64,000 bases of DNA from an uncultured Acidobacteriaceae bacterium. Lineage in GTDB: Bacteria > Acidobacteriota > Terriglobia > Terriglobales > Acidobacteriaceae. Below the pieces are notes generated by a model, which worked only from the letters and a program-made list of their open reading frames with translations, was not told the origin of the DNA and ran no database searches. A program made the position numbers and the translations under genes. The stretch covers positions 557,685-621,684 of the forward strand of contig CAWIKA010000005.1 in assembly GCA_963836565.1 (NCBI GenBank), in the 5' to 3' direction. Positions 38,958 through 64,000 of this stretch are shown here, piece after piece (the stretch's first letter is position 1; each line of letters begins with the position of its first letter).

Positions 38958-39006
38958 GTTTCAATGCTCGCTCTTGATGGTTGAAACCGATGGTGTGGAC
39001 GCCGCG

Positions 39007-39399
39007 TTACGACTTGGCGGGGATACACGCCGCACATGTGCCGTAAACGTAAAAGTCGTGCCCGGATGCGCGAAAACCCTTGGGCAATTTCGGCCTGCTC
39101 TGGGCAACACACCCTTGCAGGTCGTACAGCTTCCCGCAGTCGTTGCATTGAAAGTGGTGATGATGTTCTTTGCCCGCCACTTCGTACCGCTTGGAATCTC
39201 CAGGTACTTCGACCGGCTGCAGCCATCCTTCCTCAACCAGCGTCTGGATGTTTCGGTACACCGTGGCAATCCCAACACCCGGATGGTGCTGCTGTGCCGA
39301 TTGGAGAACTTCTTCAGGAGACAGCGGCCGGTTGGCTCCTGCAAAAGCCTCTCGAATGGCAGTCTTTTGTCTGGTGTTTCGAATCTCTCTGGTGCTCAA
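39007..39399 (-). CDS. Fur-family regulator (Zur/Nur-like)
   Basis: TRQKTAI, GIATVYRNI, HHHHFQCNDCG, YVYGTCAAC. Confidence 0.92.
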   Translation of the reverse strand: MSTREIRNTRQKTAIREAFAGANRPLSPEEVLQSAQQHHPGVGIATVYRNIQTLVEEGWLQPVEVPGDSKRYEVAGKEHHHHFQCNDCGKLYDLQGCVAQSRPKLPKGFRASGHDFYVYGTCAACIPAKS

Positions 39400-39505
39400 T
39401 CGAACCTCCTCTGTGCAAGATTAACGACTCCTCTTGATCCGGAATCCGGCGTTAAACCCCGACTCGAAATGAAGCGTCATCGGAATGCGCCGATCGCGCA
39501 ATCGT

Positions 39506-39530
39506 GATAATGATATACCATTACCATTAT
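39506..39530 (+). promoter_or_regulatory. Fur-box-like sequence abutting the lgt start
   Basis: GATAATGATATACCATTACCATTAT, compared with the Fur consensus GATAATGATAATCATTATC. Confidence 0.55.
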
Positions 39531-40398: not shown

Positions 40399-40467
40399 AC
40401 CTTATTGCCCTATGCAGCGACAACAACAGGTCACGAATGACCTTTGGAAGAATCATGGAGTCACACA

Positions 40468-41193
40468 ATGAACCCTCTGCTTCTCACCTCGATGGCGGCC
40501 GTTTCAACTTCTGTGGGCGGCTATTGTGCCGTCCTGCTGCAGCGGAGAGTCCATCTGCTCATGTCCTTCGGCACCGGAGTGCTCGTTGGCGCTGCCCTGC
40601 TGGATTTGCTCCCCTCCGCATTGTCGGCCGCGGAAAGCTCAGGTTCATCGAAGGCACTGGTTTTTCCCATCGCTGCCTTCGGCGGCCTGCTTATCTTCTG
40701 CATCGGGGAAGTAGCGAGCCGTTATCGAGCAAACAGGGTCGGTAATCGATCGGCCGGAAGGGTCAGTGCCTCTTTCCTCATTGTGCACAGCACTCTCGAC
40801 GGAACGGCTATCTTCGCTGCGTCCACCATATCGCTGCAGTTGGGGCTGATTGTGGGACTCGGAGTCGTAGCGCACGATATATGCGACGGATTGAACACGA
40901 TCCTGCTGGCCACCGGCGCAGAAAAACCTGGATGGACCGATTACGGGTTTCTGGCGCTCGATGCCCTGGCGCCCATCGCCGGCGGCCTGATCGCAGCCCA
41001 TCTCTTCCGGGTCTCCGATGCGCTGGTCATGGTCTTTCTTAGCCTTGCGGCAGGATCCTTTCTCTTTACCGCATTCTTCGGTCTGCTTCCCGATACTTGG
41101 CGACGCGCAAGCCGCAGTCTGGTGCTCTCCCTTGGACTCGTCGGCTTTTTGCTGATCCTGTGCCTCACAAAGCTGGTCGGCGCGCTTGGGTAG
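40468..41193 (+). CDS. ZIP-family metal transporter
   Basis: FGTGVLVGAALLDLLP, VHSTLDG, VAHDICDG, AAGSFLF...LLP. Confidence 0.85.
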   Translation: MNPLLLTSMAAVSTSVGGYCAVLLQRRVHLLMSFGTGVLVGAALLDLLPSALSAAESSGSSKALVFPIAAFGGLLIFCIGEVASRYRANRVGNRSAGRVSASFLIVHSTLDGTAIFAASTISLQLGLIVGLGVVAHDICDGLNTILLATGAEKPGWTDYGFLALDALAPIAGGLIAAHLFRVSDALVMVFLSLAAGSFLFTAFFGLLPDTWRRASRSLVLSLGLVGFLLILCLTKLVGALG

Positions 41194-41412
41194 AAGGAGT
41201 GGCCCCGCGGCACCGGCGAGATCAACCGAAAGTTTGGTGGAGACACTCCGCTGATTCGTACAGGCAAACGCGCTCATTGACGAGGGCGCACGTGACTGGA
41301 ATCAGCTTCTGGACGGCAATCGCTGCGCTTCTGCACCCGACCGGCGCCCTCGTCGTTTCATCTATCTCCGCAGGTCACTGGAGCTTTGAGATTTACGCGC
41401 GCGGCTATGCGA

Positions 41413-41567
41413 TGACCACTGCTCAGGCACAACATAGGTCAGGCGCACGCCGGTTTGACCTCTGGTGCAAACGACCAGAGATCAATAATCGGTCACGGCC
41501 TCCTGCGAACCAGTTTCGATTCCTATCGACTCGTCCGAGAGTGAGTTGGCGGAGATAAGCGGCCAAT
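41413..41567 (+). repeat. Left-end repeat copy L2, including the terminal inverted repeat ATAAGCGGCCAAT (41555-41567)
   Basis: Direct repeat of L1; TGGCGGA core at 41547-41553. Confidence 0.92.
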
Positions 41568-41619
41568 AAGCTGGGCCACGTGATCGTGGGTTGCAGTAAG
41601 AAGTTATATTTTCTTTCAG

Positions 41620-42237
41620 TTGGATTTTCTTCAGGAGGCGGAGCCCCGCTTCCTGCCAAGCATCTTGGCGGATCGCAGCGGGAAGCGGGACCCGTGTGAG
41701 GTAACGATCCTCTTTGTCCCAGTGTCGGTCCCGCTGGAGCGGCTTGCTGCCGGCTGGGCCGAAGACTCGGACGAGAGTATTTTACGCCGATGCCCGGTTT
41801 GCGAACAGGATTCGATTGTTGGCCATGGGCGACGGCGCAAGCAGGCGCACGACGAGCATCACGATTGGATCGGGATTCGCCGGGGCCGCTGTATCCGATG
41901 CGGAAAGACATTCACGTTTCTGCCGGTGTTCTCTCTGCCCTATACGCATTACAGCCTGCTGGCGCGCTGCCAGGCATTGCTGCGTCGCTTTGTGGAGCAC
42001 TGTTCGTGGGAGAAGGCAGCGCCGAAGTTGAAGGATCCTGACCGCGTACCCGATTCTTCCACTGTGCGCCGCTGGTCGCAAGGTGTGGACGAGTCACAGC
42101 CGGCCCTGTCTTTTCTGCGCAAGGTGGCTGCGCGAGCGGCTAAGTGGCTGGAATCTGCTTACTCGGATCAGGACGAGGCAGCGTTCTTATCCTGGCTGAC
42201 TCCGGTTCTCGAAGTCATCTGCCCTATGCGCCGCTGA
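41620..42237 (+). CDS. Zn-ribbon protein (DUF6431-like) with C-terminal HTH-like segment
   Basis: CPVC...GHGRRRK...IRRGRCIRCGKTFTFLP...Y; VPDSSTVRRW. Start uncertain. Confidence 0.72.
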   Translation: MDFLQEAEPRFLPSILADRSGKRDPCEVTILFVPVSVPLERLAAGWAEDSDESILRRCPVCEQDSIVGHGRRRKQAHDEHHDWIGIRRGRCIRCGKTFTFLPVFSLPYTHYSLLARCQALLRRFVEHCSWEKAAPKLKDPDRVPDSSTVRRWSQGVDESQPALSFLRKVAARAAKWLESAYSDQDEAAFLSWLTPVLEVICPMRR

Positions 42238-42320
42238 GAAAAAATCCTTTTCCCCACCATCCTTGCCTGGGAACTCCAGCATGGTTCTCCTACGCTGGGC
42301 TCCGGAGGCGAAAAGGCGCT

Positions 42321-43310
42321 GTGGGTGAAGACGTCGAAAGACTAAAGCGGCGAACGCCGCTGCTGGAGTACCTGCGACAGCACGACTGGGCAGGGCGGCC
42401 CGCAGGCCGATTCGAGTATGTCGGACTCTGTCCACTACACAAGGAGAGTCAGCCGTCGTTCTATGTGAACGCGCGCAAAGATGTCTTCTACTGTCACGGC
42501 TGCGGACAGGGCGGCGATCTCATCCGCTTCGTCCAGTTATCGCGCGGCTTATCCTTCCGCCAGAGCGTGGCCAGCCTCGATCCGGAGATCGCTCCGCAAG
42601 CTGATTCCAACGCTGTGCTTGAGGATGCCGCGGCGTTCTATCAGCAGCAACTGGATCGCTGCTCCGAGGCGCTCGACTATCTCCACCGGCGCGGAGTGCA
42701 TGATCCGGCACTGTTCCGGGAACTCGGCATCGGCTACGCACCAGGTGGAACCCTGCGCCGATATCTGACCGCGCAAGGCTATTCGTTCGATGTGTTGCAA
42801 AGGCTCGGCCTCATCGACGCTCGTGGCGCGGATGCTCTCTATCAGCGCATCGTGTTTCCGTTGCAGCAGAGCGAGCACATCGTCAACCTCTACGGCCGCA
42901 GCATCGGTTCTGCGTTCGCCCATCGCTTCCTGCCCGGGAGCAAGGGCGGCCTGTATGCATGGGAGAAGGTTCGCAACTGCTCCGAGGTGGTTCTGGTCGA
43001 AGGGCTGTTCGACTATGCCGCCCTGCGGCAGGCTGGGTTCCATAACGTGACCTGCTCGCTGGGTACACAGCTCAACCAAGACCAGTTCCGCCAGTTGTGC
43101 GAAGGCCAACGCACCGTCTATCTCACCTTCGATGTCGATCGGAACCAGAGCGGCCAGCAAGCTGCAGAGCAACTGGCTCAGCGTCTTGTCATGCAAGGTA
43201 TCTCGGCACGTCGCGTTCTCCTGCCTGATGGTCATGATCCTAACTCCTTCTTCGTTGAAGGAGGAGACGCACCTCAGTTCCAGTCTCTGCTGGAGGCTGC
43301 GCAGCCATGA
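42321..43310 (+). CDS. DnaG-like primase (CHC2 Zn finger + Toprim, no helicase-binding domain)
   Basis: GLCPLHKESQPSFYV, FYCHGCGQGGDLIRFV, RIVFP, LYGR, VVLVEGLFD, YLTFDVD; GTG 42321 after GGAGG. Confidence 0.92.
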   Translation: MGEDVERLKRRTPLLEYLRQHDWAGRPAGRFEYVGLCPLHKESQPSFYVNARKDVFYCHGCGQGGDLIRFVQLSRGLSFRQSVASLDPEIAPQADSNAVLEDAAAFYQQQLDRCSEALDYLHRRGVHDPALFRELGIGYAPGGTLRRYLTAQGYSFDVLQRLGLIDARGADALYQRIVFPLQQSEHIVNLYGRSIGSAFAHRFLPGSKGGLYAWEKVRNCSEVVLVEGLFDYAALRQAGFHNVTCSLGTQLNQDQFRQLCEGQRTVYLTFDVDRNQSGQQAAEQLAQRLVMQGISARRVLLPDGHDPNSFFVEGGDAPQFQSLLEAAQP

Positions 43311-44350
43311 AGTTCCACGTGATCTCGAAAAAGACCTCTACGGGCGCGCATAGTCCGATTCAGGTGGTGCAGCAATCCACCGGCAAGGGCGTTGCGTGGA
43401 TTAATCGGTACCTCGACCGCGAGTACGTCCGCCGCCTCGCAGACAAGTCCCTCTACAGCTACGCGCACAGCCTGTTGCACTTCGTACGCTGGTGGGAGAG
43501 TGTCCATCACACTGGTGAAATCTCTGCTGCTGACCTTACCGAGTCGACTCTGTTCGATTACGTACGCTTCCAATCGAGCCTCCGACCTCCGCCTTCTGCC
43601 TCCACCATCAACGACCGCACCGCCACTGCCGATCGCGCTATCCGTAATCAGTTCCCCGATGCTCCATGTCAGGTCGCGCACGGCTTCCATCAGCCCTTCC
43701 TGCACCGCAGGCCGATGGGCCTGGGACGGCCCAGGTTCGAGCTGAGCAGACTCAGAGTGCGGGAACCCAGGCTCAACGTCGTTCCTCTCTCGGTCGATGA
43801 AGTGGCGCGCTTCTGGTCCAGTTTTCGAAACGCTCGCGACCTGGCCATCGTCGGCCTGATGCTGATGCAGGGGCTCCGCTCCGCCGAAGTGATGGCCTTG
43901 AACCGTGACGATGTGCTGCTCTCCGAAGGGCAGCTTCGGGTGCGCGGCAAGGGGAACAAGCTACGCTTGCTGCCCCTGGCGCCGGAAACCACGCAACTGC
44001 TCGATCACTATCTCCGCGTCGAGCGCCCCGATCCCTGTTCGGCGGCACTGTTCGTGGTCTTGAAAGGGTCCGCTCGCGGCCAACGCATGACACCGGCGGG
44101 ATTACGCTCCCTGTTCCGTCATCATCGCCGCACCTCCGGCGTTCAACTAGCCAATCCCCACCGGTTCAGACATACCTTCGCCTCGGACATGGTGCGCGCC
44201 GGCATCAGCCTGCCCGCGCTGATGCAGTTGATGGGTCATGCCGACATCGAGACCACCATGCACTACGTGAAGGTCTCACCGCAGGATGTCTATCTCCAGT
44301 ACGCCCGCGCGGCGGCGCAATGTATCCATCCGCAACCGAGGATCTCCTGA
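43307..44350 (+). CDS. Tyrosine recombinase 1
   Basis: GLRSAE, VRGKGNK, PHRFRHTFA, LMGHADIETTMHY; ATGA overlap with the primase stop. Confidence 0.96.
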   Translation: MKFHVISKKTSTGAHSPIQVVQQSTGKGVAWINRYLDREYVRRLADKSLYSYAHSLLHFVRWWESVHHTGEISAADLTESTLFDYVRFQSSLRPPPSASTINDRTATADRAIRNQFPDAPCQVAHGFHQPFLHRRPMGLGRPRFELSRLRVREPRLNVVPLSVDEVARFWSSFRNARDLAIVGLMLMQGLRSAEVMALNRDDVLLSEGQLRVRGKGNKLRLLPLAPETTQLLDHYLRVERPDPCSAALFVVLKGSARGQRMTPAGLRSLFRHHRRTSGVQLANPHRFRHTFASDMVRAGISLPALMQLMGHADIETTMHYVKVSPQDVYLQYARAAAQCIHPQPRIS

Positions 44351-45486
44351 TGCGCTGGCGCCGTCCTCCACTTCAGCATCCCCTGGCACTGGCCTTCGCG
44401 CACGCGGTCGAGTCTCTGTGCACCGCACTCACTCCTTCCAGCAAACGCAATTACGACATCGCGGTGCGCAGCTTCCTCGTTTATCTGGGCGCAGAATATC
44501 CGAAGATTACTCGTCTCGAACAACTGCGCCGCGATCCTCATATCCTCGGATGGATGGCGCACCTGCGCGCCCAGAATCCGCCTCTGGCCACGGCAACCTG
44601 CATCGGACGGCTCTTCGCGCTGCGCACTATCTTCCATGAGCTCGCTCGCACCAGCCATCTCGCTGAACTGGCCCACTTGCTGCTGCGCGAGGATATCCCG
44701 CGCTCGCCCCATACTCTGCCACGACCGCTTACCCCCGAGCAGGATCAAATCCTCCAGCAGGAGTTCATGCGCCGCAACGATCTCGGCGGAAATGTCTTCC
44801 TCCTGCTCCGCTCGACCGGCATGCGTATCGGCGAGTGCGTCGATCTCTCCTACGACTGTCTGCGCTCCACGGGGCCGAACCAATGGGCCATCCATGTTCC
44901 CCTCGGCAAACTCAAGACCGAGCGCATGGTCCCGGTCGATATCTTCGGCCGCGATCTCGTGCACCGCCTGCGCTTCTTCCGCTCTCTCGACCCTCTGCCT
45001 GCGGATGGTCGCCTACTGGCGCGGCCCGGAAGCAAAATAGCTATCCTGGTTCAGCTCCGCGATTACCTGCATCAGGTCTGCCACTCCCTCGGACTCTCTA
45101 CTCGCATCGTCCCCCATCAGTTCAGACACACTTACGCCACGGAGATGCTTCGCTCCGGGGTCAGCTTCCCCGTCCTGATGAAATTACTCGGCCACGTCGA
45201 TCCGGCCATGACCATGCGTTACGTCGATGTCGCCCTCACCGATCTCGAACGCGAGTTCCAGTTGGCTCGTTCCAAACCCAGGCATCTGGCTCCACAACCC
45301 AAAACTTCGACCGCACCCGCAAGGGCAGGCCTCGACGGCCTCATCGATGCCTTAGTCGCCGCTCAACACCTTATGGAGATGTTCCGTCGATCGCTCACAA
45401 ACGGCAGCGCTCGCAATCGGCTCCTCCGGCTCTCCAAACGCCTCATCAAAATCCTGACCGAGATAAGAAAACTCCACACCACCTGA
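44350..45486 (+). CDS. Tyrosine recombinase 2 with C-terminal helical extension
   Basis: TGMRIGE, LGKLKTER, PHQFRHTYA, LLGHVDPAMTMRY; TGATG overlap with recombinase 1. Confidence 0.96.
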   Translation: MRWRRPPLQHPLALAFAHAVESLCTALTPSSKRNYDIAVRSFLVYLGAEYPKITRLEQLRRDPHILGWMAHLRAQNPPLATATCIGRLFALRTIFHELARTSHLAELAHLLLREDIPRSPHTLPRPLTPEQDQILQQEFMRRNDLGGNVFLLLRSTGMRIGECVDLSYDCLRSTGPNQWAIHVPLGKLKTERMVPVDIFGRDLVHRLRFFRSLDPLPADGRLLARPGSKIAILVQLRDYLHQVCHSLGLSTRIVPHQFRHTYATEMLRSGVSFPVLMKLLGHVDPAMTMRYVDVALTDLEREFQLARSKPRHLAPQPKTSTAPARAGLDGLIDALVAAQHLMEMFRRSLTNGSARNRLLRLSKRLIKILTEIRKLHTT

Positions 45487-45521
45487 ATGAAAATGGGCAC
45501 CGATTGGCCGGTTATGGCGGA
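45473..45521 (+). repeat. Right-end copy R1
   Basis: tccacaccacctgaatgaaaatgggcaccg-ATTGGCCGGTTAT-ggcgga. Confidence 0.88.
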
Positions 45522-52529: not shown

Positions 52530-52541
52530 AGCATTCTCAAG

Positions 52542-54393
52542 GTGAGTAGGCCTGAGGACTTTCACCCCAAGCCCCTCGCAGAACCGTGCGTAAATCTCTC
52601 GATTTACACGGCTCCCATTATCCAACCGAATATCTGGTAACGTTCCAGTAGAAAAACATCTGAGGGAAGCAGTTCTTCATCTTGATGAGCCATTGCACAC
52701 TGGCCTGCTCTCGCCGCTCCAGTGTCTGGTATTTGCGTCTGGCCCATTGCATCAGCTTGCCATCGAAATACATGGCGAAGCTGTGCATCGCCGATGGGTA
52801 GAACTCCCCGAAGTAATTCCACCAGCCACGTAGTACCGGATTGTATTGCTTCGCCAGTTCAGCAAGTGTCGTTGCTGTCCGGCGATGGATGCGCCAGCCC
52901 CGCACCTCCTTCCGCATTCGCTTCAGAGCATCAACACTCACGCCCGGCGTAAAGCTTGTGAATCTCCGGCCTTGTCTGTTGACAGCACGCCTTGGACGAA
53001 ATGTAAATCCAAGGAATGTGAACTGAACATGCGGATAAGAGGCATTGCGGCCACTGCTCTTGCAGTACACAATTCGCGATTTCTCCGGGTGCATCGTCAA
53101 CCCGCATTCCGTCAGTCGCAATGCGATGGACCGCATTACTTGTTCTGCCTGTTTCCGATTTCGGCAGTGAACCACAGCGTCATCGGCGTAACGGGCAAAC
53201 GGACATGATGGATTGGTGCGTTGCATCCAGACATCGAACGCGTAGTGCATGAACAGGTTCATCAAAATCGGACTGACGACTCCGCCTTGCGGTGTGCCTC
53301 GTTGCCGCGACACCCGTTCGCCGTCTGTGGTCTCGAACGGAGCGGTTAGCCACCGTTCGATATACAGCAGTATCCAGTCCTCCTTGATGTGGCTGCGGAC
53401 CGCTTTCAACAAGAGGCCATGATCGATTTGATCGAAGGCTGACTTGATGTCAAACTCCACCACCCATGCGTATTGCCAGCACCGTTTTCTGGTGACTGCC
53501 ACCGCCTGTTTCGCCGACTTACCAGGCCGATACCCATAGGAATCCTGATGGAATAACGGGTCCAATGTCGGTTCGATGATGCGCTTGACCACGGTCTGCG
53601 CAATGCGATCAGATACAGTCGGAATACCGAGCTTTCTCGTGCCGCCCTTTGCCTTCGGAATTTCAACCTGTTTCACCGGAGGCGGGAAGTACGACCCCGA
53701 CGACATCCGGTTCCACAGTTTGTACAAATTCCTCGACAGGTTCTGCTCGAACATCGCAAGGGTTTCCCCATCGATGCCGGCAGCGCCCCGATTGGCCTTG
53801 ACCTGCTGGTATGCCTCCCATACTGCGCGCTTCGCAATAACATACGGTTTCGTTGATGTCATATCACTCATCCCCATGAAACAGGTTGGCGATACTCGTC
53901 AACTGGATAACGCTGCCCCTTCGCTCCACCCTCATTACAAGAGCTTCATGGCTACTACGAGCAGCTCCGTCCCTTGCTCTGGCATCGGTATTCTTCCTCA
54001 TGGTGTTTGCCATTTGTCATTTCCCTTCTCATCCAGAGCAAAGTTCTCACGTTCCGTACCAAAGCCTGTGTTGAGTTCATGCCGCCTTTACACCGACTGC
54101 CACCGGGACCGTAAGCAGGTTCCTTCCCGGCTAATCATGGAGCAGGTGGGCTCCCCACTTTTGGCAGTTCCTTAACCCGTAACGATGCGTCATCGGCCGG
54201 TTTGCTTTCGCTCATCTCCTCAACACGTACCTGACCTCCTGATCGGAAGTCTTTTCCCCAGTTGTTCACTACCGCGCCTTTTGAACGCAGCAGCACTGGG
54301 CGGTTTGAAGCCTGCTCCTGCAAGCCGACTTCGGGAGGCCTACTCCCATCTTTGGTACAGCACCGCGAGCTTGCGCTCGCGTTCGTGACACAC
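52542..54393 (-). mobile_element. Group II intron, RmInt1-like (bacterial class D), 1,852 nt
   Basis: 5' end GTGTGTCACG at 54393; domain V GGGAGCCGTGTAAATCGAGAGATTTACGCACGGTTCT; domain VI ending CTACTCAC at 52542. Confidence 0.92.
52618..53862 (-). CDS. ltrA: Group II intron reverse transcriptase/maturase (no endonuclease domain)
   Basis: KANRGAAGIDG, LGIPTVSDR, GTPQGGVVSP, RYADD, FTFLGF, maturase X domain NPVLRGWWNYF. Confidence 0.96.
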   Translation of the reverse strand: MTSTKPYVIAKRAVWEAYQQVKANRGAAGIDGETLAMFEQNLSRNLYKLWNRMSSGSYFPPPVKQVEIPKAKGGTRKLGIPTVSDRIAQTVVKRIIEPTLDPLFHQDSYGYRPGKSAKQAVAVTRKRCWQYAWVVEFDIKSAFDQIDHGLLLKAVRSHIKEDWILLYIERWLTAPFETTDGERVSRQRGTPQGGVVSPILMNLFMHYAFDVWMQRTNPSCPFARYADDAVVHCRNRKQAEQVMRSIALRLTECGLTMHPEKSRIVYCKSSGRNASYPHVQFTFLGFTFRPRRAVNRQGRRFTSFTPGVSVDALKRMRKEVRGWRIHRRTATTLAELAKQYNPVLRGWWNYFGEFYPSAMHSFAMYFDGKLMQWARRKYQTLERREQASVQWLIKMKNCFPQMFFYWNVTRYSVG

Positions 54394-55258: not shown

Positions 55259-56191
55259 GTTGTGTACTGGCAGCTAGCTGAGATGGGTATTCCGTGCGAG
55301 GTTGTGGCGCCCACGCTGGTACCGATCAAGGCGGGCGATCGGGTGAAGACAGATCGGCGGGATGCGGAGAAGTTGGCGCGTTGCTACCGATCCGGCGATT
55401 TGACGGCAGTATGGGTTCCTGATGAAGGTTCCGAGGCTCTACGAGATCTGGTGCGTGCTCGTGAGGCCGCCAAGCAGGATCAGATGCGAGCGCGGCATCG
55501 GTTGAGCAAGTTCCTTTTGCGCTCAGGCCAGCGTCCACCAACCGGTGTGAGGCCGTGGACCCGGCCTTATCTAATCTGGGTTGCACAGCTACGGTTCACA
55601 CAGTCAGCTCAGGAGTCCACGCGGCAGGATTATCTACACGAGGTCGAGCACATGCGGGCACGAGTGGCACGTCTGGAGCAAGCCATCATGGAAGCAGTGA
55701 AGCTGGCCTCTCCCGCGTTACAACAAGTCATCAACGATCTGCAGGCACTTCGGGGTATCGCTGATATCTCGGCTGTGACCATTGCGGCCGAGCTGGGCCA
55801 GGTGTCCCGCTTTGGCAGTGCTCGGGAGTTGATGGGCTATTGCGGCGCGGTGCCGAGCGAAGACTCAAGCGGCAAGCGAATCAGGCGTGGGGGCATCACT
55901 AAAACTGGGAATGCGCATCTTCGACGAATTGTTGGCGAAGCAGCATGGAGCTATCGCCGGCCACCGTGCATCTGGTATGGCTTGCGGAGGTGGCAAGAGA
56001 GCATTTCGGAAGAGGCCAAAGAAATCGCGTGGAAAGCCCAACACCGCTTGCACAAACGGTACATGAAGCTGGGTGCAGCCGGAAAGCCACAAGGCAAGAT
56101 CATTACCGCGGTTGCTCGTGAGTTGCTGGGATTCATCTGGGCCATCGGAATCAGAGCAGAGACGATCGCCAACCAGCCAGCCGCAGCATGA
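55259..56191 (+). pseudogene. IS110 transposase lacking the N-terminal RuvC-like segment
   Basis: DRVKTDRRDAEKLAR, GAVPSEDSSG, GITKTGNAHLRR, AVARELLGFIW present; GLDVH and YEAG motifs absent. The ORF start at 55175 is unrelated sequence. Confidence 0.85.
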
Positions 56192-56283
56192 CAAGATCTA
56201 CCGAAAGACAAAAACTTTTCTAAGAAGGAAAAAGCAAAGACAGTTCATCGATGAATCGCGCCACACAACTCGAACACAGAGCC

Positions 56284-56454
56284 AGCAGCAGGCTGGGCAA
56301 GCACGAAGGAGAACCCTCGCTTGGCCTATGCGACAGGCTCGACCGGACTCGCGATAACAGTCAGAGGCAGCTCCCGACGGATCATGATTATGCGGTTCCG
56401 ACCCGCGAATATCAGACTGATCAATCGTCGCTAAAACCTGCCCAGGCTGCTGCT
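56284..56454 (+). ncRNA. Candidate IS110 bridge/seek RNA region
   Basis: Closing stem 56284-56299 with 56439-56454 (15/16 complementary); internal GGAGAACCCTCG, TATGCG, CCCGACGGA, CCCGCGAATATCAG. Boundaries inferred. Confidence 0.6.
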
Positions 56455-56716
56455 CGCTTTGTGCTCGGAGAACGGCAAAGGCAACTACAAAAACAACCCC
56501 ACCGATCCAGTGGAATTGACACGGTCACTCCATATCAGGCCAAAGGGCTCATTGAGCCATTCAAGTCGATCGGTGTTCTCGGCAAGTGGCCGTAAAACCG
56601 GCTACGGAGAGAAGTGACTTCCGATGTTGAGTAAGCATTGGAAACCATGTGGACGAGCAGCCGACGCACCGGGATCTAACGTACCCGCGTCTTCTCCACG
56701 ATAGTCTCTGTCGCTT

Positions 56717-57991
56717 TTAGCGGCTGCGGATGAGGACGGCTGTTGCATCGTCAGCTAGTTCCGCTCCAGCCCCGAAACGCCGGACTGCGGCGATAAGGCC
56801 GTCCACGCCGGCTGTGGGCTGCAGAAAGTGGTCGATGAGGCGAGCCGGCCCATATTCTTCCTCAGTGCTATCCGTGGCTTCTGTGATGCCGTCGGTATAC
56901 AGCAGCAATTGAGTGCCGGGGGTGAGCGTGATGGTGCACTGTGGATACAAGGACACTCCCAGGCCAAGCGGCAGGCCGGTGTCTAATTCCAGAAACGAAG
57001 AATGATGATTGATGAGCAGGGGAGGAAGGTGTCCGGCGCTGGCTAGGGTGAGCGTGCGAGAGCCGGCATCGAGCACACCGTAGACCATGGTGACGAACTT
57101 TCCAGTTGGAAGATCTTCCATGAGTACTCGGTTCAGATGTTCAAGGGTCTGCGCGGGCGAGGAATAGAGGGGAGCCAGCGAGCGCAGGATGGCCCGGGTA
57201 GCCGACATCAGGAGCGCGGCCGACATGCCCTTTCCGGAAACATCGGCCAGGGCTATGCCGTAGCGCTGGTCACCAAGATCGATGAAATCGAACCAGTCGC
57301 CTGCGACGGATCCCGCGGGATGCCAGGCCGTTTCAAAGGCGAAGCCCGGGATGAGCGGCACCGGCTTCAGAAAAAGCGCTTGCTGGATAGCGCGGGCCTC
57401 AGCGGACTCCCGCTGCATTCGTTCGCGCTCAGAGCGCTCGAGCCGGAAGAGGCGGGCGTTCTCAATGGCGATAGCGATGTGTCCGGCTAGCGCCTGAAGC
57501 ACCTTCAGTTGATCATCCGAGAAGGCGTCCGTCTGGTGATGGTCAATCAAAAGAACGCCGATGACCTGACCGTGGGTTTTGAGGGGGATGCTGACTTCAG
57601 AGCGAGTGGCTGGTTCGCAGACAATATAGTAGGGGTCTTGGCGGACGTCGCGGGCGTAGCGCATCTTGCCCGTAGCTGCCACATGGCCGACCATGCCTTG
57701 TCGGCCAATTTGCAGCCGGTCTCCCTTGCGGTACTGTGCGCAGCCACGCACTCCGTGTAGGACCATCTCGCCTGTATCGCTCGCGCGGAGCCATACCGCA
57801 ACCTCCACATTTCCAACAGAGTCGGCGATGTCATTGACAACGCGATCGAGCAGGGCGTCGAGATCGAGGGTGGAGGCGATCAGATTCGTGGCCCGTTGCA
57901 GCTTCATGAGAACTTGAACGAATTCGCCCGAGGAATGGATGCGCGGTGAGACGGCACGGCGATCCTGAGCGACGGCCGGGAAGGCGGCCAT
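56717..57991 (-). CDS. GAF + SpoIIE (PP2C, RsbU-like) phosphatase
   Basis: GAF with GRQGMVG and SEVSIPL; AGDWFDF, ADVSGKG, SAGHLPP, LYTDGITEA, DDATAV. Confidence 0.93.
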   Translation of the reverse strand: MAAFPAVAQDRRAVSPRIHSSGEFVQVLMKLQRATNLIASTLDLDALLDRVVNDIADSVGNVEVAVWLRASDTGEMVLHGVRGCAQYRKGDRLQIGRQGMVGHVAATGKMRYARDVRQDPYYIVCEPATRSEVSIPLKTHGQVIGVLLIDHHQTDAFSDDQLKVLQALAGHIAIAIENARLFRLERSERERMQRESAEARAIQQALFLKPVPLIPGFAFETAWHPAGSVAGDWFDFIDLGDQRYGIALADVSGKGMSAALLMSATRAILRSLAPLYSSPAQTLEHLNRVLMEDLPTGKFVTMVYGVLDAGSRTLTLASAGHLPPLLINHHSSFLELDTGLPLGLGVSLYPQCTITLTPGTQLLLYTDGITEATDSTEEEYGPARLIDHFLQPTAGVDGLIAAVRRFGAGAELADDATAVLIRSR

Positions 57992-58108
57992 AGGTCCCTC
58001 CTTTGAACCCACTGTATGGGTTACTCAGTAGATGGTTGAGCAGGGGTTGCGATGCAATCTCTTGAGTACTGAGCAGTCTCCCAGGACAGCTCGGAGCCAG
58101 TTCATCCT

Positions 58109-58207
58109 CTGACTTTCAAGTGCGAGCGTGGCGAGTGCCGACTTGATCCGGTTGGTAAAGCCCGTGGCGCTGTAGTGCTCGCGTACTTTGGTGTTCGTGT
58201 CGGTCAT
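58109..58207 (-). pseudogene. Short N-terminal remnant of a SAM methyltransferase-like gene
   Basis: MTDTNTKVREHYSATGFTNRIKSALATLALESQ, then unrelated sequence; family call from recollection. Confidence 0.4.
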
Positions 58208-58253
58208 GACGGTTGTCCTGGAAGAGTCGTTGATTGGGGGTGGCTGATCCCAA

Positions 58254-58778
58254 CTAAGACGCAACTGCGTTGCGGGTGAGGCCATGGGCTACTTTGGATT
58301 GGGGACGCACCAGCCAATAGAAAGCGACGAAGTGCGTGATCATCAGCAAAGGCACGTAGATGATCGGGATGACGTATGCGGCGCCCAACTGCCCTGCGAC
58401 ATAGGGAAGACCCGACCGGATCGCGTTGTAGTAGTCGACGAAAATGTCGGTCGCACCCACAACGTTGAAGGCGACGACGAATGACCAGAACAGTGGACGT
58501 ATCCTCGTCGTGAGAAGTGCAAGTATAGCCAGGACACCGGTTGCGAAGTCGCCGTAAGCGGAGAACGTGGCGAAACCAGCCGGCAGGTGAGGACCGACGA
58601 CGCCAGGAAGAAGAAAGACGAGCCCGAAGAAGCGAAAACTGTGCAGGGTCGCGATTGCGCGTTGTGCGCTGAAGCGATCCATCGACCGAAGCCTGGGCAT
58701 GATGTACGTGCCGAAGAGAAGCAGGGCTGCGACATAGCCGAGTACGAGTTGCGTTGGGAAGATTAATTGCGTGGACAT
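58254..58778 (-). CDS. Conserved membrane protein
   Basis: LHSFRFFGLVFL, AYGDFATG, FNVVGATD, IPIIYVPLL; GGAGG SD. Confidence 0.78.
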   Translation of the reverse strand: MSTQLIFPTQLVLGYVAALLLFGTYIMPRLRSMDRFSAQRAIATLHSFRFFGLVFLLPGVVGPHLPAGFATFSAYGDFATGVLAILALLTTRIRPLFWSFVVAFNVVGATDIFVDYYNAIRSGLPYVAGQLGAAYVIPIIYVPLLMITHFVAFYWLVRPQSKVAHGLTRNAVAS

Positions 58779-58821
58779 AGAACCTCCTTGTAGATCGGGA
58801 TTACAAGATTCCCGGATGAAC

Positions 58822-59763
58822 TCAAATGGACTCCGAACCGGCCACACTGGCAACGAAGGATCCGGCATTCGCGCGGAAGAACTGCTCCAGCGTTTGCGGA
58901 TTCCGGCCGGTAACTGCACGGACCGTATCGGTTGTCTGGCGCTCTTCCTTGCTATTCCGGAAGGATTGCCAGAGATGGCTGAGATGATCGAGCGCGTGCG
59001 GATTCATGCGCTCCTTCACTGCGTCAGCCCACTGCTGGTCGGTGATGGGCGTATAACGAATCGGCCGACCGACCGCCCTGCCCAGAGTTTCAACGATCTC
59101 CCGCACCGTTAGAGTTTCGCTGACCAGAGGGTATATGGTTTGCGGGGGCAAGCCAGGGTTGGCCAAAAGAGTTGCGGCTACGCGGGCCACGTCTTCGGCG
59201 CCGGTGAGAGGGATCACGGCACTGCCATCGCCCCACGGCAGAAAGACGGTGCTTTGGTCGGCCACGCTGCGGCTGGCAAGAGCGCGTACATTTTCGTAAT
59301 AGGGGGGCGCCTGAAGATGAACGGCCCCCACTTGCGCCCAGTCGAAGATACGATCCGCCAGGCGATGCTGCAGATTGCGAAAAGAAGGAGCGGTCTGGAG
59401 GTCGCCGAAGCCGGGAGCCCCTGGCTTGCCCTGATACTGCGAGTTGTTTACCACCACTTCCAACTGTGCATCGCGGGCTGCTGCAGCAAAGATGGTGGCT
59501 GCCTCCAGCAGCCCATCGGCCACTGGATAGGTAAAGTAAGCACGTTTCACTTCTCTCATCGCCGCCGCGAGAGAGGCTGCGTTGAGAAGATCGCCCTCAA
59601 TGAGTTCCGCACCTTGCCGGCGGAGTTCATCAGATCGGTCATCGAGCTTACGGACGAAGGCGCGAACGGGAATGCCTCGTTCTAGAAGAAGCTTTGCGAT
59701 GATGCGGCCCGTGGATCCCTGTGTACCGCCGGCGGCGCCTGTGACCAGAATCGGGTGAGGCAT
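58822..59763 (-). CDS. NmrA-like NAD(P)H-binding protein
   Basis: ILVTGAAGGTQGSTG, EGDLL, EDVARVAA, TVREIVE. Confidence 0.88.
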   Translation of the reverse strand: MPHPILVTGAAGGTQGSTGRIIAKLLLERGIPVRAFVRKLDDRSDELRRQGAELIEGDLLNAASLAAAMREVKRAYFTYPVADGLLEAATIFAAAARDAQLEVVVNNSQYQGKPGAPGFGDLQTAPSFRNLQHRLADRIFDWAQVGAVHLQAPPYYENVRALASRSVADQSTVFLPWGDGSAVIPLTGAEDVARVAATLLANPGLPPQTIYPLVSETLTVREIVETLGRAVGRPIRYTPITDQQWADAVKERMNPHALDHLSHLWQSFRNSKEERQTTDTVRAVTGRNPQTLEQFFRANAGSFVASVAGSESI

Positions 59764-59789
59764 GGGAGATTCTCCTTTTATGGCTATAG

Positions 59790-59866
59790 GATGATTCATA
59801 TCATCTAACGGATTCGCTTTTCTTCTGACGCCCTGCCGACTGCATTGTGGGATGATCTCGAGCATC
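59790..59866. promoter_or_regulatory. Two candidate TetR operators
   Basis: GATGAT-tcat-ATCATC (59790-59805) and GATGAT-ctcg-AGCATC (59851-59866) in the divergent intergenic region. Confidence 0.6.
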
Positions 59867-59878
59867 CTACAATCAGGC

Positions 59879-60454
59879 ATGCGATATCGACCCGAACATA
59901 AAGCTGAAGTCCACCGAAGGATTGTGAAGGACGCGTCGCGACGCGTACGCGCCGAGGGCTTGAATGGCGCGGCGGTTGCAGCAGTTATGCGCGACACCGG
60001 GCTGACCCACGGTGGCTTTTACAAACACTTCAAGAACAAGGATGAACTGCTCCTGGAGTCGCTGAGCGACGCTTTCCGCGACATCGGCGACACCCTGGTC
60101 CGCGCGGCTGAGCGGTCGCACCCCGAGTCCGCGTGGAAGGCCATTGTGAAGACCTATCTAAGTCTCGAATTCTGCGATCACCCCGAACGCGGTTGCCCGC
60201 TGCCGGCGCTTGCTCCCGAATTGTCGCGGATAGACCAGAAGATGAGGAAGCGGATTCTTCCCCAACTCGTGAACTATAAAGATCGAATGCTTCCCTTTAT
60301 GCCGGGCACGCGAATTGCGGACAAAGAGCGCGCTTTCTTCGTGATCTTTGCGACCATGGCCGGGACCATAGAAATCGCCCGCATGCTGCCGGAGCCGGCG
60401 TTACGGGAGAAGGTCCTGTCCGCCTCCAGAGATTTCCTTTTGTCCAGCTTTTGA
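59879..60454 (+). CDS. TetR-family regulator
   Basis: VAAVMRDTGLTHGGFYKHFKNKDELL; GCPLPAL. Confidence 0.95.
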   Translation: MRYRPEHKAEVHRRIVKDASRRVRAEGLNGAAVAAVMRDTGLTHGGFYKHFKNKDELLLESLSDAFRDIGDTLVRAAERSHPESAWKAIVKTYLSLEFCDHPERGCPLPALAPELSRIDQKMRKRILPQLVNYKDRMLPFMPGTRIADKERAFFVIFATMAGTIEIARMLPEPALREKVLSASRDFLLSSF

Positions 60455-60551
60455 ACTCCGAAGTCGAAACGGCATCAGGCCAATGCTCATGCGCTCACTT
60501 CATAGACGCGTAAATCCGCAAATGTTGCTGTCAGCTGTTTGCGTACAGGCC

Positions 60552-60904
60552 ATAAGCGGCCAATCAGTTCCCATTTTGAGGTGTGGAAAATATTGCACGT
60601 TGCGAGGCCGATCAGGCTATATCTTCACCAGCCGATACTCCGCGATAGAACGAGAATGCCAACTCTCATTTGCTCCTCTGCAACGCACTGCATGGATTCC
60701 AGGTATCAGAGGCCGTCATGAGCGCAACTCGTGCCGCTACGCGGCACTCAAGTCTCAGCAACGACCGACCCGTGCTCAAACAAGAAGTGAAAACACCCTG
60801 TTTGAAAGTAAGAAATCCGGCTGAAAAATAATACAGCGTCTGTCCCAGCCGCGCCATACCTGGCGTTGCTCAGATAATGCTGGTCTAAAAGATTGGCCGC
60901 TTAT
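60552..60904 (-). mobile_element. 353-bp non-autonomous derivative of the recombinase-primase element (inverted)
   Basis: Perfect terminal inverted repeats ATAAGCGGCCAAT (60552-60564) and ATTGGCCGCTTAT (60892-60904). The 60552 end matches R1; the 60904 end and outer flank match L2. Confidence 0.85.
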
Positions 60905-61255
60905 CTCCGCCAAGTCACTCATTGACCCGGTCGGATCGGCTATGCCTCTGGCAAGTTGCGGTATAACCGGCTGCTCGGACAAGTGATCACTGCCCAGCAT
61001 TTGCTGCGATTCTCTCGCGAGCGGTGAACAGCCATTGAACTCATCTAGTCTAGGGATCGATACTGCAAACTCGGTGTGTCGCCCGAAAAATGCAAGGCGG
61101 ATCGGAGAAATCGTGTGGGACGGTCCGCGTGGATGCCCTTGTCCCGGAGCGGCAGTTATAGTCTCCAGTAAGTCTCCAGGAAGTCCGCGCGGCTTCAGAC
61201 GATACGCTCGAACCCGCATAACCATTGCCGTTCATGCCGTATCCGGACGCATTCT

Positions 61256-61277
61256 AACCTCCTGCATCGGAAAATAA
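61256..61277 (+). repeat. attR of mnmE-integrated island
   Basis: AACCTCCTGCATCGGAAAATAA, a duplication of the mnmE 3' end. Confidence 0.92.
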
Positions 61278-61341
61278 TTCGACATCCAAGGACATCTCGG
61301 CATATCCGCCAAATCTCAACGCCGTTTTGAAAATGAATAAT

Positions 61342-63336
61342 TTATTGCCCGGAGGCATTCGAAGATGTCCGAGGAGAGCTGAGTGCCGCGACCTTCGCAG
61401 GAGCAGCAAGAGCCGCGAGCGTATCGATGTCGAAATATCGGTAAAGATCGAGGCAAAAAAGCTCAGGTGCGGAGCGAAACGGAACTGGCGTATCGATCAG
61501 GTAGCTCAGGCTCTTCATGCCATTCCGGCTCACCACGGTAGAGAAGTCTTCTGGCGCGATCGCCGCGGCAGTCAAGGCAATTACCTGGTTGCGAATACCG
61601 TCTGTTTCCACCTGCACAGGCTGACCGGTGGTGGAATGGAGCCAGCTTGCAATAGCTACCAATTGCGCGGTTTCCAAGCCCAACGGACGAGCGCCGCTGC
61701 TGTCTGCCAGCAGTTCCCACGGTACGCGATCTGGCAAGAGGTCGCCATTGAAGAATAGATCCAGTGCCAACACCTGTTTCCCGCGGTCCAGGTTCTGGGT
61801 CACCATGTCTGTGGCGGCTTTGTAGCCTTCGTCATCAAGCACGATGGTCGCCGGCGCGTTCTCAGGAGCAGCTTCTTCGCGGAACAATATCGCATTGGCG
61901 CTGAGTTCGTTAGAAAAATCGAAACGATAAGACACGGTGCGAAAATCAAAGGCTCTGCCGTTATCCACACGCAAGGCCTGTGCCATCGATACCGGCGCAT
62001 AGCGGACCACGGATTCCAACTTTTCTCGCTCTTTCTTTGCCCACACCTGGCGCCCTTTGCCGTCGGCCGGTGCCGATTCATGATGGATCTGCTGCGCCAG
62101 TTTTCTCGCCAGGGTAACGAAAGTTAAGTTATCGGCTGGCAGACCGATGGAAAGCTCTTGCAGGGTCCGGACCTCATTGTCGCTGTAAATCTCGCCATCC
62201 AACACAGGCAATTTGAAGTGCTCACTGAAGAAGCGATAGGCTTGGTCGCGATTATCCAACTGATAATTGTGTGTTCCAGGATAGAGATTCTCGCTCCAGG
62301 CCAGGCTAGCTGAGGCTCCGTAGAGCTGAAAAAATGGTTTTACCCGGTCATATATGTAGGGCCTCACCAAGGGAGCCCTAAAACAACAGTTATCCGTGCC
62401 ATTATGGATCTCCATCGTGGGACGAGGCGCCCGTACAGCAATCAATTCAGGATAGTCTTCACTCTGCATCAAATCAGGCGCGTCCTCTTCAATTTCGTCG
62501 GTATCCACCGGATGAGTGAGGTTCGACTCGCGCGAGCCAATCCCGGCCACCTCAACCGCGACCGCGACGCGTGGATCAAGGGCGCTCAGCATTACCGTCT
62601 GCCATCCACCTCCGGAGAGTCCGGTGACGCCGATCCGAGTTGTGTCAACCTCCTGCAATCCACTCAGGTAATCCAGCCCTCGACGCATGGAAAGATAAAA
62701 GATTCCCAGCGCATTTGAACCGACCAGGTTCAACTGGGAAGCGAAATCGTGTGCGTTTTCAGGATTCGCGAGCTCTCCGAAACCAATAAACTCCAGGTCA
62801 AGGGCGACGATCCCGCGCTTGGCGAAGTTAATGCAACGCTTCTGTTCGTATTCCACCCCGATCCCATCCGGCTCATGTCCCAGCAAGTTAAGAATTGCGG
62901 GCATACGCCCGGTGATATTTACCGGATCATAGAGAAGCGCGGTCGAATAGAAGCCCGGCACAACTTCAAGGCGCAATTTGTGAATCCGGTACCCGTGGCC
63001 GCTTTCAATGATCCCCACATCCTCGAACTTCGGGGCAGCATCAATCCATTCGCGCGGCCAGCCGTGATAAGCAACATCGTCGAGAACATGCTTGCGAACC
63101 CGCTCTTCCTCCGCACTCCACGATGCGGCCGTCGTAGGAGTGGGCAACGGAGGAATACGCTTCAGCAAGAATTCCTGCAGTTGATACTCCCGCGATGGAA
63201 CATCCCGCGAAGGCTGCGCCAGCGCCTCCTGCACGTAAGGCTTGCTGACCTGGGCATACCCGTACACTGCCCCCACCACCAGCAGGCAGGGCAATAATCC
63301 GGCAATCTGCAGACTGTGCCGGCATTTCTCCCGCAT
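61342..63336 (-). CDS. Exported alpha/beta hydrolase (acetylxylan-esterase-like)
   Basis: LNLLGHE, RIGVTGLSGGGWQT (GxSxG), APRP, DNCCF, GTHNY. Start uncertain. Confidence 0.78.
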   Translation of the reverse strand: MREKCRHSLQIAGLLPCLLVVGAVYGYAQVSKPYVQEALAQPSRDVPSREYQLQEFLLKRIPPLPTPTTAASWSAEEERVRKHVLDDVAYHGWPREWIDAAPKFEDVGIIESGHGYRIHKLRLEVVPGFYSTALLYDPVNITGRMPAILNLLGHEPDGIGVEYEQKRCINFAKRGIVALDLEFIGFGELANPENAHDFASQLNLVGSNALGIFYLSMRRGLDYLSGLQEVDTTRIGVTGLSGGGWQTVMLSALDPRVAVAVEVAGIGSRESNLTHPVDTDEIEEDAPDLMQSEDYPELIAVRAPRPTMEIHNGTDNCCFRAPLVRPYIYDRVKPFFQLYGASASLAWSENLYPGTHNYQLDNRDQAYRFFSEHFKLPVLDGEIYSDNEVRTLQELSIGLPADNLTFVTLARKLAQQIHHESAPADGKGRQVWAKKEREKLESVVRYAPVSMAQALRVDNGRAFDFRTVSYRFDFSNELSANAILFREEAAPENAPATIVLDDEGYKAATDMVTQNLDRGKQVLALDLFFNGDLLPDRVPWELLADSSGARPLGLETAQLVAIASWLHSTTGQPVQVETDGIRNQVIALTAAAIAPEDFSTVVSRNGMKSLSYLIDTPVPFRSAPELFCLDLYRYFDIDTLAALAAPAKVAALSSPRTSSNASGQ

Positions 63337-63485
63337 CTTAGGCTTGCTTCTCGCTCCTATGCAGTCCATTCATCTCCTGATTGAACGTCGCTATAGTCTT
63401 CAAGCAATCAGGGTGCCAGGAGATATTCAAGTGGCGTCGCCGCCAACTTACCTATCTCCTGGCACCCCGTTTGACCAAAGCCTTC

Positions 63486-64000
63486 TCAGAATTTGATTTT
63501 CAGCGCCATCTGGAGGATTCGAGGATCACCGGCAGAGCTGATTTGCCCAAAATTGCTGTCTTGAAGTCCGGCATCAGGGTCGCCAAAGTTGACATTGTTG
63601 AATGCGTTATAGAATTCCGCACGGAACTCATAGGTAGCGCGTTCTACTACTTTTCCAGTTTTCAAGAGAGCCAAATCCGTAGTGAAGAGCCTCGGACCGC
63701 GAAGAGAGTTCTTGCCGATGTTACCGTAAGTGCCGATGGCATTTGGAACAAAATCGGAAGTGTTGAACCACTCATTGATCAGCGCGGAATGGGAACGGCT
63801 TGTACTCAGCTGCGTATCCTTTATGTTTGCCACAGTGATGTCCGGACGGTCATTCCCCATCGCAGAGAAGGAATTATCGTCTTCGGCGAATGACGTAAAC
63901 GGAAAGCCCGTTTGCCAGTTTGAGATAGAACTGAGGTTCCATCCGTTGATCGCCTTATCTGCGACCCCTTTAATCGGAATCCGGGGAAAGGCATAGTTTC
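63486..64000 (-). CDS. Oar-like TonB-dependent receptor, C-terminal part (continues beyond the window)
   Basis: INGWNLSSISNWQTGFPFT, YGNIGKNSLRGP, EFRAEFYNAFN, PRILQMALKIKF. Confidence 0.92.
   Translation of the reverse strand, partial: NYAFPRIPIKGVADKAINGWNLSSISNWQTGFPFTSFAEDDNSFSAMGNDRPDITVANIKDTQLSTSRSHSALINEWFNTSDFVPNAIGTYGNIGKNSLRGPRLFTTDLALLKTGKVVERATYEFRAEFYNAFNNVNFGDPDAGLQDSNFGQISSAGDPRILQMALKIKF

Follow-up and report, generated by a model that had tools for sequence, protein, structure and literature searches.

A gene-less 353-bp unit in an Acidobacteriaceae genome, probably a non-autonomous member of a tyrosine-recombinase transposon family

DDE transposons are well known to have miniature, non-autonomous counterparts. 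The literature searched held no miniature partner of a bacterial tyrosine-recombinase transposon (Tn554, SE, RIT, GInt), the terms 'miniature' and 'non-autonomous' having 0 matches in the SE paper, and no description of an element that combines a primase with two recombinases, both being absences in the literature searched and not proof of novelty. For the SEs, a single-stranded circle intermediate has been proposed. Bacteroidetes mobilizable transposons, e.g., MTnPi, excise as circles (PMC4755523), and the CIMEs, which are decayed ICEs or IMEs moving in cis with a neighbour, occupy a single gene-end att site, at which tandem accretion occurs (PMC5704250).

The window analysed here, i.e., the whole stretch of 64,000 nucleotides from an uncultured Acidobacteriaceae bacterium, contains a short unit that is, with good confidence, a non-autonomous member of a family of small site-specific transposons of the Acidobacteriaceae, whose recombinase-encoding form measures ~3.96 kb. 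The initial annotation had proposed a miniature derivative mobilised by a tyrosine-recombinase element; the partnership is supported by copies at multiple sites, an empty site and the two recombinases of the larger element, and the unit is not a simple deletion derivative of it.

Two convergent genes flank the unit with their 3' ends, and it is 15 kb from the 4-kb element (hereafter the parent), in the opposite orientation. It is bounded by a perfect 14-nt inverted repeat (ATAAGCGGCCAATC / GATTGGCCGCTTAT, at 60552–60565 / 60891–60904) with 325 nt between the arms; the repeats had been described as perfect from the start, with a length of 13 bp where the arms measure 14 nt. With up to 2 mismatches allowed, this 14-mer has 5 matches in the window against a shuffle mean of 0.52, and 0 of 100 shuffles reach 5. 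The matches are both arms of the unit, 41555 (plus strand), 45502–45515 (minus strand), and 12234, which has 2 mismatches and lacks any other end feature. The 60552 end is the recombinase-proximal or 'right' end and the 60904 end the primase-proximal or 'left' end, and the features of the unit and its surroundings are as follows.

60552–60904, minus strand (left to right as the parent defines it): miniature element, 353 bp arm to arm, with a perfect inverted repeat and eight full or near-full homologues
60549–60908, no strand: 360-bp block present or absent, as seen in empty-site contigs of metagenome runs X1 and X3
60552–60577, plus strand: right-type end, formed by the 14-nt arm ATAAGCGGCCAATC and the block AGTTCCCATTTT specific to right ends, matching parent 45490–45516
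60891–60904, minus strand: left-type 14-nt arm, from the inverted repeat and the match to the parent left end
60905–60911, minus strand: 7-nt spacer GGCGGAG (plus strand CTCCGCC), companion of the left arm, as in left-type flanks and the junctions of contigs L123 and L124
60813–60826, minus strand: left subterminal motif TTTCAGCCGGATTT, shared with the parent and inside the interior block that is best conserved among the miniatures
60912–60933, minus strand: left target half-site, TCAATGAGTGACTT and then the spacer, fitting the flank consensus TCGAYGAGYGMNTY-GGCGGAG
60528–60551, plus strand: right target half-site, ...TTTGCGTACAGGCC, a weak fit to the consensus TGAYGCATAATCGCC
60731–60747, plus strand: small hairpin GTGCCGC-TAC-GCGGCAC, function unsupported
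60963–60971, plus strand: ATAACCGGC 9-mer, chance or an unrecognisable relic by motif counts
59852–60454, plus strand: neighbouring TetR-family gene
61342–63369, minus strand: neighbouring gene of 675 aa, with only a sub-threshold AXE1 esterase match

The boundary of the 360-bp block is ambiguous by 4 nt, GCCA at 60549–60552 being the same as GCCA at 60909–60912, and the ACAGGCC variant of the right half-site is also present at loci L008 and L125.

The parent comprises the following features, all on the plus strand.

41555–45515, plus strand: 3,961 bp from arm to arm, presumed to be the autonomous partner, from arm matches and full copies elsewhere
41547–41553, plus strand: TGGCGGA at the left junction, probable crossover region, repeated at 45515–45521 and found at the joint of an X1 contig
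42144–43310, plus strand: DnaG-like primase gene with CHC2 zinc ribbon, DnaG N-terminal core and Toprim domains (Pfam)
43307–44350, plus strand: tyrosine recombinase A, 347 aa, Xer-like (PF00589, 3e-30)
44320–45486, plus strand: tyrosine recombinase B, 388 aa, Xer-like (PF00589, 7.5e-21)

The three genes are tightly packed on the plus strand, the two recombinase genes overlapping at 44320–44350, and the parent arms agree with each other at 12/14 positions. The primase matches TIGR01391 at 4.5e-49, yet falls below the family cut-off, and both recombinases are nearest to Xer-type enzymes in NCBIfam, again below the family cut-offs. Compared with XerD (1a0p), the R, K, HxxR, H and Y residues are kept in A (GLRSAE / GKGNK / HRFRH / GHAD...HY) as well as in B (GMRIGE / GKLKTER / HQFRH / GHVD...RY). 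The closest annotated relatives, overlapping recombinase pairs of 351 + 651 aa, come from Rhodococcus and Mycobacterium plasmids and have no primase, with at most ~37% and 28% identity to the nearest annotated pair (Rhodococcus plasmids); no relatives from Staphylococcus or Enterococcus occur in the genus tally or among the best 40 of 602 records (E <= 1e-12). Full copies in other MAGs are 85–92% identical to the window parent. Directly to the left of the parent, 33487–41412 is a possible CIME-like cargo module.

The comparison of the two elements clearly shows that they share their ends. As initially claimed, 60551–60577 matches 45490–45516 (minus strand) over 27 nt with 3 mismatches. The match of the 60904 end and its outer flank to the parent left end is equally real, with 2 mismatches over 29 nt (60891–60919 against 41540–41568, minus strand) where one had been counted, the figure of 1 mismatch applying to 28 nt. 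The resemblance of an interior AT-rich tract to 41598–41630 is also real and can be stated more sharply, since the motif TTTCAGYYGGATTT pins it. This motif has exactly two copies in the window, at 41614–41627 (plus strand) and 60813–60826 (minus strand), both 60–78 nt inside a left-type arm and in identical relative orientation, and among the 124 fetched loci it is confined to the left ends of full or miniature copies. The arms of the miniature agree with each other at 14/14 positions and each with a parent arm at 13/14, and both elements carry the 26-nt right-end block ATAASCGGCCAATCNGTNCCCATTTT, whose conservation is at the level of DNA, since in the parent it comes after the final gene's stop codon. 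Outside the arms, parent and miniature have the same flank signature, GGCGGAG next to the left arm and GGC next to the right. In the miniature, sequence shared with the parent is limited to ~14 + 14 nt on the left and ~26 + 7 nt on the right, and on sequence comparison the likeness of the ends is far beyond chance.

Beyond the ends, the ~300-bp interior has no significant similarity to the parent (blastn, end alignments), so the miniature is not a simple internal deletion of it, and that origin was rejected. The result also bears on the idea of an immobile relic, in which a deletion left a scar or a full copy at this site decayed to two solo ends. Such a relic would fit the lack of genes inside the miniature, and a copy at locus L015 (3,245 bp), in which 710 bp of the primase gene are missing, shows that internal deletions happen in the family, but the interior of the miniature is not parent sequence, and the distribution and polymorphism of the unit described below speak against a relic as well.

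The initial annotation saw no recognisable gene in the interior, and indeed there are no Pfam or NCBIfam matches and the open frames are not conserved among the 8 copies of the unit. ORFs overlapping the unit have no family matches and look spurious, as do the ORFs running into the elements, for which there are no homologues in 1.3 Mb of related DNA. The hairpin at 60731–60747 is present as first reported; 4 of its pairs are kept across the 8 copies, with no compensatory change. Rfam gives 0 matches to the miniature at E <= 1, RNAalifold on the eight copies gives an unfavourable covariation term of +4.58 with few compensatory pairs, no terminator-like site was found in the unit, and the single sigma-70-like match (60802–60829) is at chance level (0.6 expected). 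An RNA gene, a terminator, a promoter or a small conserved protein in the interior is thus unsupported by Rfam, RNAalifold, site scans and ORF conservation. These results, together with the chance level of the sole promoter-like match, argue against a small functional module (regulatory RNA, promoter cassette or protein-binding locus) that is merely transported and whose interior is under selection, a reading that we regard as very unlikely even though conservation of the interior across species stands at 87%, some blocks, e.g., AATCCAGCTGAAAAATAATACA, are invariant, and the sigma-70-like match lies inside the most conserved block. Since this best-conserved block contains the left subterminal motif common to the parent, the conserved parts of the interior are most simply read as cis sites for transposition, and the 87% conservation could mean an unrecognised function instead of recent spread.

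A further ATAACCGGC had been noted at 60963. The 9-mer is there, at chance level: ATAASCGGC has 6 matches in the window, 4 of them true ends, and the 2 extra ones compare with 0.86 expected. Both this 9-mer and ATAAGCGGC at 12606 were rejected as ends, being without the CAAT continuation and without the flank signature, and the 60963 copy belongs to the flank, since it is also on the X1 empty-site contig.

The family is found well beyond the window. In a species-representative genome collection, the right-end pattern ATAASCGGCCAATCNGTNCCCATTTT occurs at 23 loci, all in Acidobacteriaceae MAGs (e.g., Terracidiphilus and Silvibacterium), which include full copies of 3,954–3,960 bp (L003, L006, L009, L012, L016, L022 and L011), the shortened copy at L015, a copy with a 1.3-kb insertion (L021), and ~350-bp units (L002, L007, L008 and L023); two scans with miniature interior motifs added L026, L027, L034, L036, L038 and L125. 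The ~350-bp homologues, 71–92% identical to the miniature, come from 11 further MAG species of the Acidobacteriaceae, where they sit at unrelated sites, and the miniature family amounts to 8 complete or near-complete copies and 2–3 fragments. The 8 copies align over their full length with a mean column identity of 87%, the window copy being 92% identical to L038 and 71% to L008. Their boundaries are identical and their flanks unrelated beyond ~22 nt, so that the copies are, judged by these flanks, independent insertions rather than orthologous loci, and the recurrence of the whole unit, interior included, at unrelated sites is hard to reconcile with a relic. There is one miniature in the window and one per carrying MAG (11 MAG species), and its depth in metagenomes is 1–2 times that of the flank. 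No DNA match for the unit or for 56000–64000 was found in the plasmid collection, and the right-end pattern was not found in viral contigs.

A search for empty sites, which the initial annotation had suggested, was successful in metagenome contigs. In two independent soil or sediment metagenome runs (X1 and X3), contigs join 60548 to 60909 (X1, 514 bp, depth 3.9; X3, 201 bp, depth 5.0), and the joint skips exactly 360 bp, i.e., the 353-bp element plus the 7-bp spacer, with a 4-nt overlap. The contigs are 31-mer unitigs, and a 4-nt overlap therefore cannot create the joint as an assembly artefact; the X1 contig also covers 60909–61230 with 0 differences. On the minus strand, the restored site reads TCAATGAGTGACT-TGGC-CTGTACGC, which has the form of a target. 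In the same runs, the miniature forms a unitig of its own whose ends coincide with the element boundaries (60551–60911 in X1), and the other flanks attached to it fit the target consensus (...GGCGCATCATA / GCCATAAG and CTCCGCCAA / TGTGCTCATCGAGC, slashes here and below marking element edges), these loose ends indicating that an identical miniature resides at other sites in those communities. Synteny gave no empty site: orthologues of the gene at 61342–63369 are 91% identical, synteny stops at 61379, and nothing that lies left of this position in the window is present at the loci of the 675-aa orthologues. The empty site of the miniature could be ancestral instead of an excision product. The unit is thus neither single-copy, with 11 MAG species carrying it, nor without an empty-site allele, which was found in two runs, and the precise 360-bp presence/absence polymorphism at this locus, together with other flanks on an identical unit in the same metagenomes, makes an immobile relic extremely improbable.

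The parent family looks active, on the strength of four identical copies, an empty site for the window copy, head-to-tail junctions and raised depth. One MAG holds 4 full copies, at different sites, that are 100.000% identical over 3,954 bp. For the window parent, an X1 contig joins 41546 to 45515, skipping 3,968 nt and sharing the 7 letters TGGCGGA, and in runs X1–X4 the depth of the parent is 3–10 times that of its flanks, with many alternative flanks attached at 41538–41546 and 45518–45520. A head-to-tail junction, ATTGGCCGGTTAT-GGCGGAG-ATAACCGGCCAAT (right arm, spacer, left arm), is present in two metagenome contigs of the full-length family, L123 and L124, the latter reading in order a chromosomal flank, a full element 77% identical to that of the window, the junction, and the first 116 nt of the left end. 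The junction in these contigs is either a circle junction or a tandem dimer, and either way it shows a 14-7-14 core. Parent and miniature are co-resident not only in the window but also in runs X1–X4.

Miniature and full copies share one flank signature, ...GAGYGMNTY-GGCGGAG / left arm and right arm / GGCG-ATNATGCG..., in which left junctions read ...TCGAYGAGYGMNTY-GGCGGAG / ATAAG and right junctions, read inward, ...TGAYGCATAAT-CGCC / ATAAG. GGCGGAG is present in 15/16 of the left-type flanks listed, L026 having ATGAGAG instead, and a match at L022:1195, a 13-mer with 1 mismatch and without the flank signature, is probably not an end. The four identical copies have in common GGCGGAG, the element and GGCG, and the bases just beyond differ, which indicates that the ~20-nt conserved flanks belong to the target and not to the element. 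Joining left and right flanks gives a degenerate palindromic target, GAGTGCAT-TGGCGATT-ATGCGTCA. The reconstructed targets have no common reading frame, so that the conserved flank marks a recognition motif in the DNA, not a target gene. Two other identities for the target were considered and rejected: a tRNA or conserved gene, the window being without tRNA or tmRNA and the empty sites without a common long frame, and an abundant genomic repeat, there being 4 near-matches in 1.3 Mb against ~1 in shuffles. The repeat at the junctions is the shared TGGC(G)(GA), 4–7 nt long and sequence-specific, and the bases beyond the right arm are those of the target; this pattern, with the spacer kept by the left arm and target bases beside the right, is what an exchange limited to the shared TGGC(G) would produce.

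A mechanism can be proposed from these observations. The 14-nt terminal arms would be bound by the recombinases, with NGTNCCCATTTT adjoining the arm as the putative identity element of the right end and TTTCAGYYGGATTT, ~60–80 nt inside, as that of the left end. Recombination between the left and right junctions would release the element as a circle or form a head-to-tail joint in which the arms face each other across the 7-nt GGCGGAG, a lox- or dif-like 14-7-14 core; for the miniature, the predicted joint reads ...AAAAGATTGGCCGCTTAT-CTCCGCC-ATAAGCGGCCAATCAGTTCCC... on the plus strand. This core would then recombine with a palindromic target close to the degenerate form above (candidate target TCAATGAGTGACTTGGCCTGTACGCAAACAG), strand exchange presumably taking place inside the shared TGGC(G) (candidate cleavage region TGGCGGAG), the expected outcome being a left arm that keeps the spacer and a right arm bordered by the spacer bases of the target. 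We infer the arm-by-arm assignment of the proteins, the exact cleavage positions and the role of the primase. Since the miniature has all the cis features and no genes, a full copy would have to supply its recombinases in trans, and we infer that the parent's enzymes move it.

A more far-reaching version, which is doubtful at present, would make the family a new class of tyrosine-recombinase transposon that moves by one strand exchange placed at the spacer's left edge, which would explain why GGCGGAG stays with the left arm, followed by primase-primed replication or a single-stranded circle; the miniature would then be its dedicated non-autonomous parasite and the first partner of MITE type to be described for such a transposon in prokaryotes, and the att-like palindromes would be hot spots that shuffle segments and accrete cargo.

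The main rival to mobilisation by the parent is mobility by way of other enzymes, either host XerC/XerD (cf. IMEX and the pdif modules carried by Acinetobacter plasmids) or a relative that has diverged from the recombinase pair, the scar and functional-module readings being poorly supported. Several observations are in keeping with it. By the exact right-end pattern, a strict one applied to incomplete MAGs, no full copy is found in the 10–11 miniature-carrying MAGs; the parent recombinases are Xer-like; and in run X3 the end of a different family member (GATAACCGGCCAAC...) is found at the miniature's site. With their GCAT(A/T)/TTATGC ends, the target half-sites are loosely reminiscent of the inner arms of dif (compared with the E. 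coli and Frankia sequences; PMC3025954), which is taken only as a resemblance. However, the arms of the miniature differ from each parent arm at 1/14 positions, the element family alone has the 26-nt right block and the subterminal motif of the left end, insertions lie at many loci and not at one chromosomal dif, and an intact partner is in the same window, which together leave other enzymes an unlikely source of the mobility. Mobilisation by the parent in trans accordingly remains the preferred reading.

The system is compact and apparently active in abundant soil Acidobacteria, with a 4-kb three-gene element and a 360-bp substrate made up of cis sites alone. Its 7-nt spacer is defined, its target motif can be read, and empty sites and head-to-tail junctions occur naturally, which together would offer a minimal substrate for the study of arm binding, cut sites and the role of the primase. 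For annotation, the family may explain why Acidobacteriaceae genomes contain conserved 'orphan' repeats and local hot spots of rearrangement.

Among described systems, Tn554 and the SEs resemble the parent in having two adjacent tyrosine-recombinase genes, which overlap in the parent, and preferred targets (PMC10214605, PMC8138268). The terminal inverted repeats are 13–19 bp in SEs and 14 bp in the parent family, the spacer between joined arms is 6 bp in SEs and 7 bp in the parent, and in both the spacer is split asymmetrically between the junctions after insertion. In contrast, the parent has no TnpC, Srap or Tfp homologue and carries a DnaG-like primase in that place, its spacer is an invariant GGCGGAG kept with one end, whereas that of SEs is replaced at each move, and empty sites exist for parent and miniature, while SEs leave none. 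RIT and GInt elements are likewise compact, with multiple tyrosine recombinases as their only conserved genes and inverted repeats at their ends (PMC8138268, PMC10214605), but they have three recombinase-fold genes against the two plus primase of the parent, and RIT inverted repeats are ~34 bp long as opposed to 14 nt here. The Bacteroidetes mobilizable transposons (e.g., MTnPi of Prevotella; PMC4755523) also encode a primase-family protein along with tyrosine integrases, in some cases a tandem pair; compared by description only, elements of this type have a relaxase and are several-fold larger, while in the parent no relaxase or oriT was recognised. IMEX and other Xer-dependent elements use a chromosomal dif and host XerCD, in contrast to the many loci, the family's own recombinases and the loose likeness to dif seen here.

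For the miniature itself, the CIMEs offer a parallel in keeping attL and attR, having no integrase of their own and needing the recombinase of a related element (PMC5704250); the miniature differs from them in being independent, dispersed and 353 bp long, with terminal repeats that are inverted and not direct, and in having an interior that bears no relation to the parent. The label MITE-like, which the initial annotation gave it, holds in part: like a MITE, for which the usual size is under ~600 bp, the miniature is small, gene-less, intergenic and present at several sites, with perfect terminal inverted repeats that match those of a larger, presumably autonomous coding element of the same genome. 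It departs from classical MITEs in being present at about one copy per genome, and MITEs have a DDE transposase as partner and a target-site duplication made by staggered cuts, whereas the partner of the miniature is a pair of tyrosine recombinases and its TGGC repeat is a crossover overlap with a sequence requirement.

A head-to-tail junction of the form right arm-GGCGGAG-left arm, in which the 7-nt spacer separates the two ends, is found in two metagenome contigs (L123:81-111 and L124:4377-4407); it belongs to a relative 77% identical to the 4-kb element of the window, and represents a circle junction or else a dimer in tandem. The left flank of the element at position 5182 of locus L016 is 100% identical over 55 nt to L021:162-216, a locus from a different MAG. 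This identity reaches up to ...GCATTGGCG, beyond which lies the element in one MAG and unrelated sequence in the other, the latter having no match to the right flank of L016. An identical flank with differing continuations suggests an exchange of neighbouring DNA by att-like sites.

The left flank of the miniature unit's site (60446-60550) has two other joins in contigs from soil/sediment metagenome runs: it runs into the end of a different family member, GGGATAACCGGCCAACGTCCG..., in X3, and into another left-type target half-site, TGAAGCACTCATCGAAC..., in X4. The site may be a recurrent recombination hot spot. On its other side, synteny with the closest MAGs stops at 61379, at a 675-aa gene with 91% amino acid identity. 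As none of the window sequence left of this position is present in the loci of these MAGs, everything on that side may belong to a region that is variable or has been rearranged.

Among the Acidobacteriaceae loci, one full copy (L021:1096-6350) carries a 1.3-kb insertion near its right end with a 5-bp duplication; apart from this insertion, its identity to three sister copies is 100%. The copy at L015:212-3456 is missing 710 bp of the primase gene and keeps both recombinase genes. Right-type ends at L014:1203 and L018:4609 continue into sequence that resembles neither the full element nor the miniature unit, and no partner end was found within either locus; these may represent additional variants of the family that carry different content.

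The window holds other repeats and a further mobile element, a group II intron placed to the right of the 4-kb element and to the left of the miniature unit:

9381-9410 / 9520-9549: inverted repeat AGGGACGAGGGAACAGGGACGAGGGAATAG, 30 nt and rich in G, its arms 90% complementary with 109 nt between them
17771-25918: four repeats at ~2.67-kb spacing (125-nt and 84-nt blocks, 69-76% identical), probably tandem paralogous genes
52541-52616 and 54229-54347, minus strand: RNA domains of a group II intron, above the gathering scores of Rfam RF00029 and RF01999

Directly adjoining the 4-kb element on its left, and downstream of mnmE, is a cargo segment:

33487-41412: ~7.9 kb, genes without a recombinase (two DJ-1/PfpI, AraC regulator, P-type ATPase, Lgt, ZIP transporter)

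It is associated with a 149-nt direct repeat (33345-33493 and 41413-41561, copies 87% identical), both copies of which terminate in a target-like flank with GGCGGAG and ATAA after it, in that order; a different end, ATAACCGCTCGTAG, comes after the first copy. The segment probably corresponds to 'L1' in the initial annotation, and appears to be a CIME-like module that accreted at the same site as the 4-kb element.
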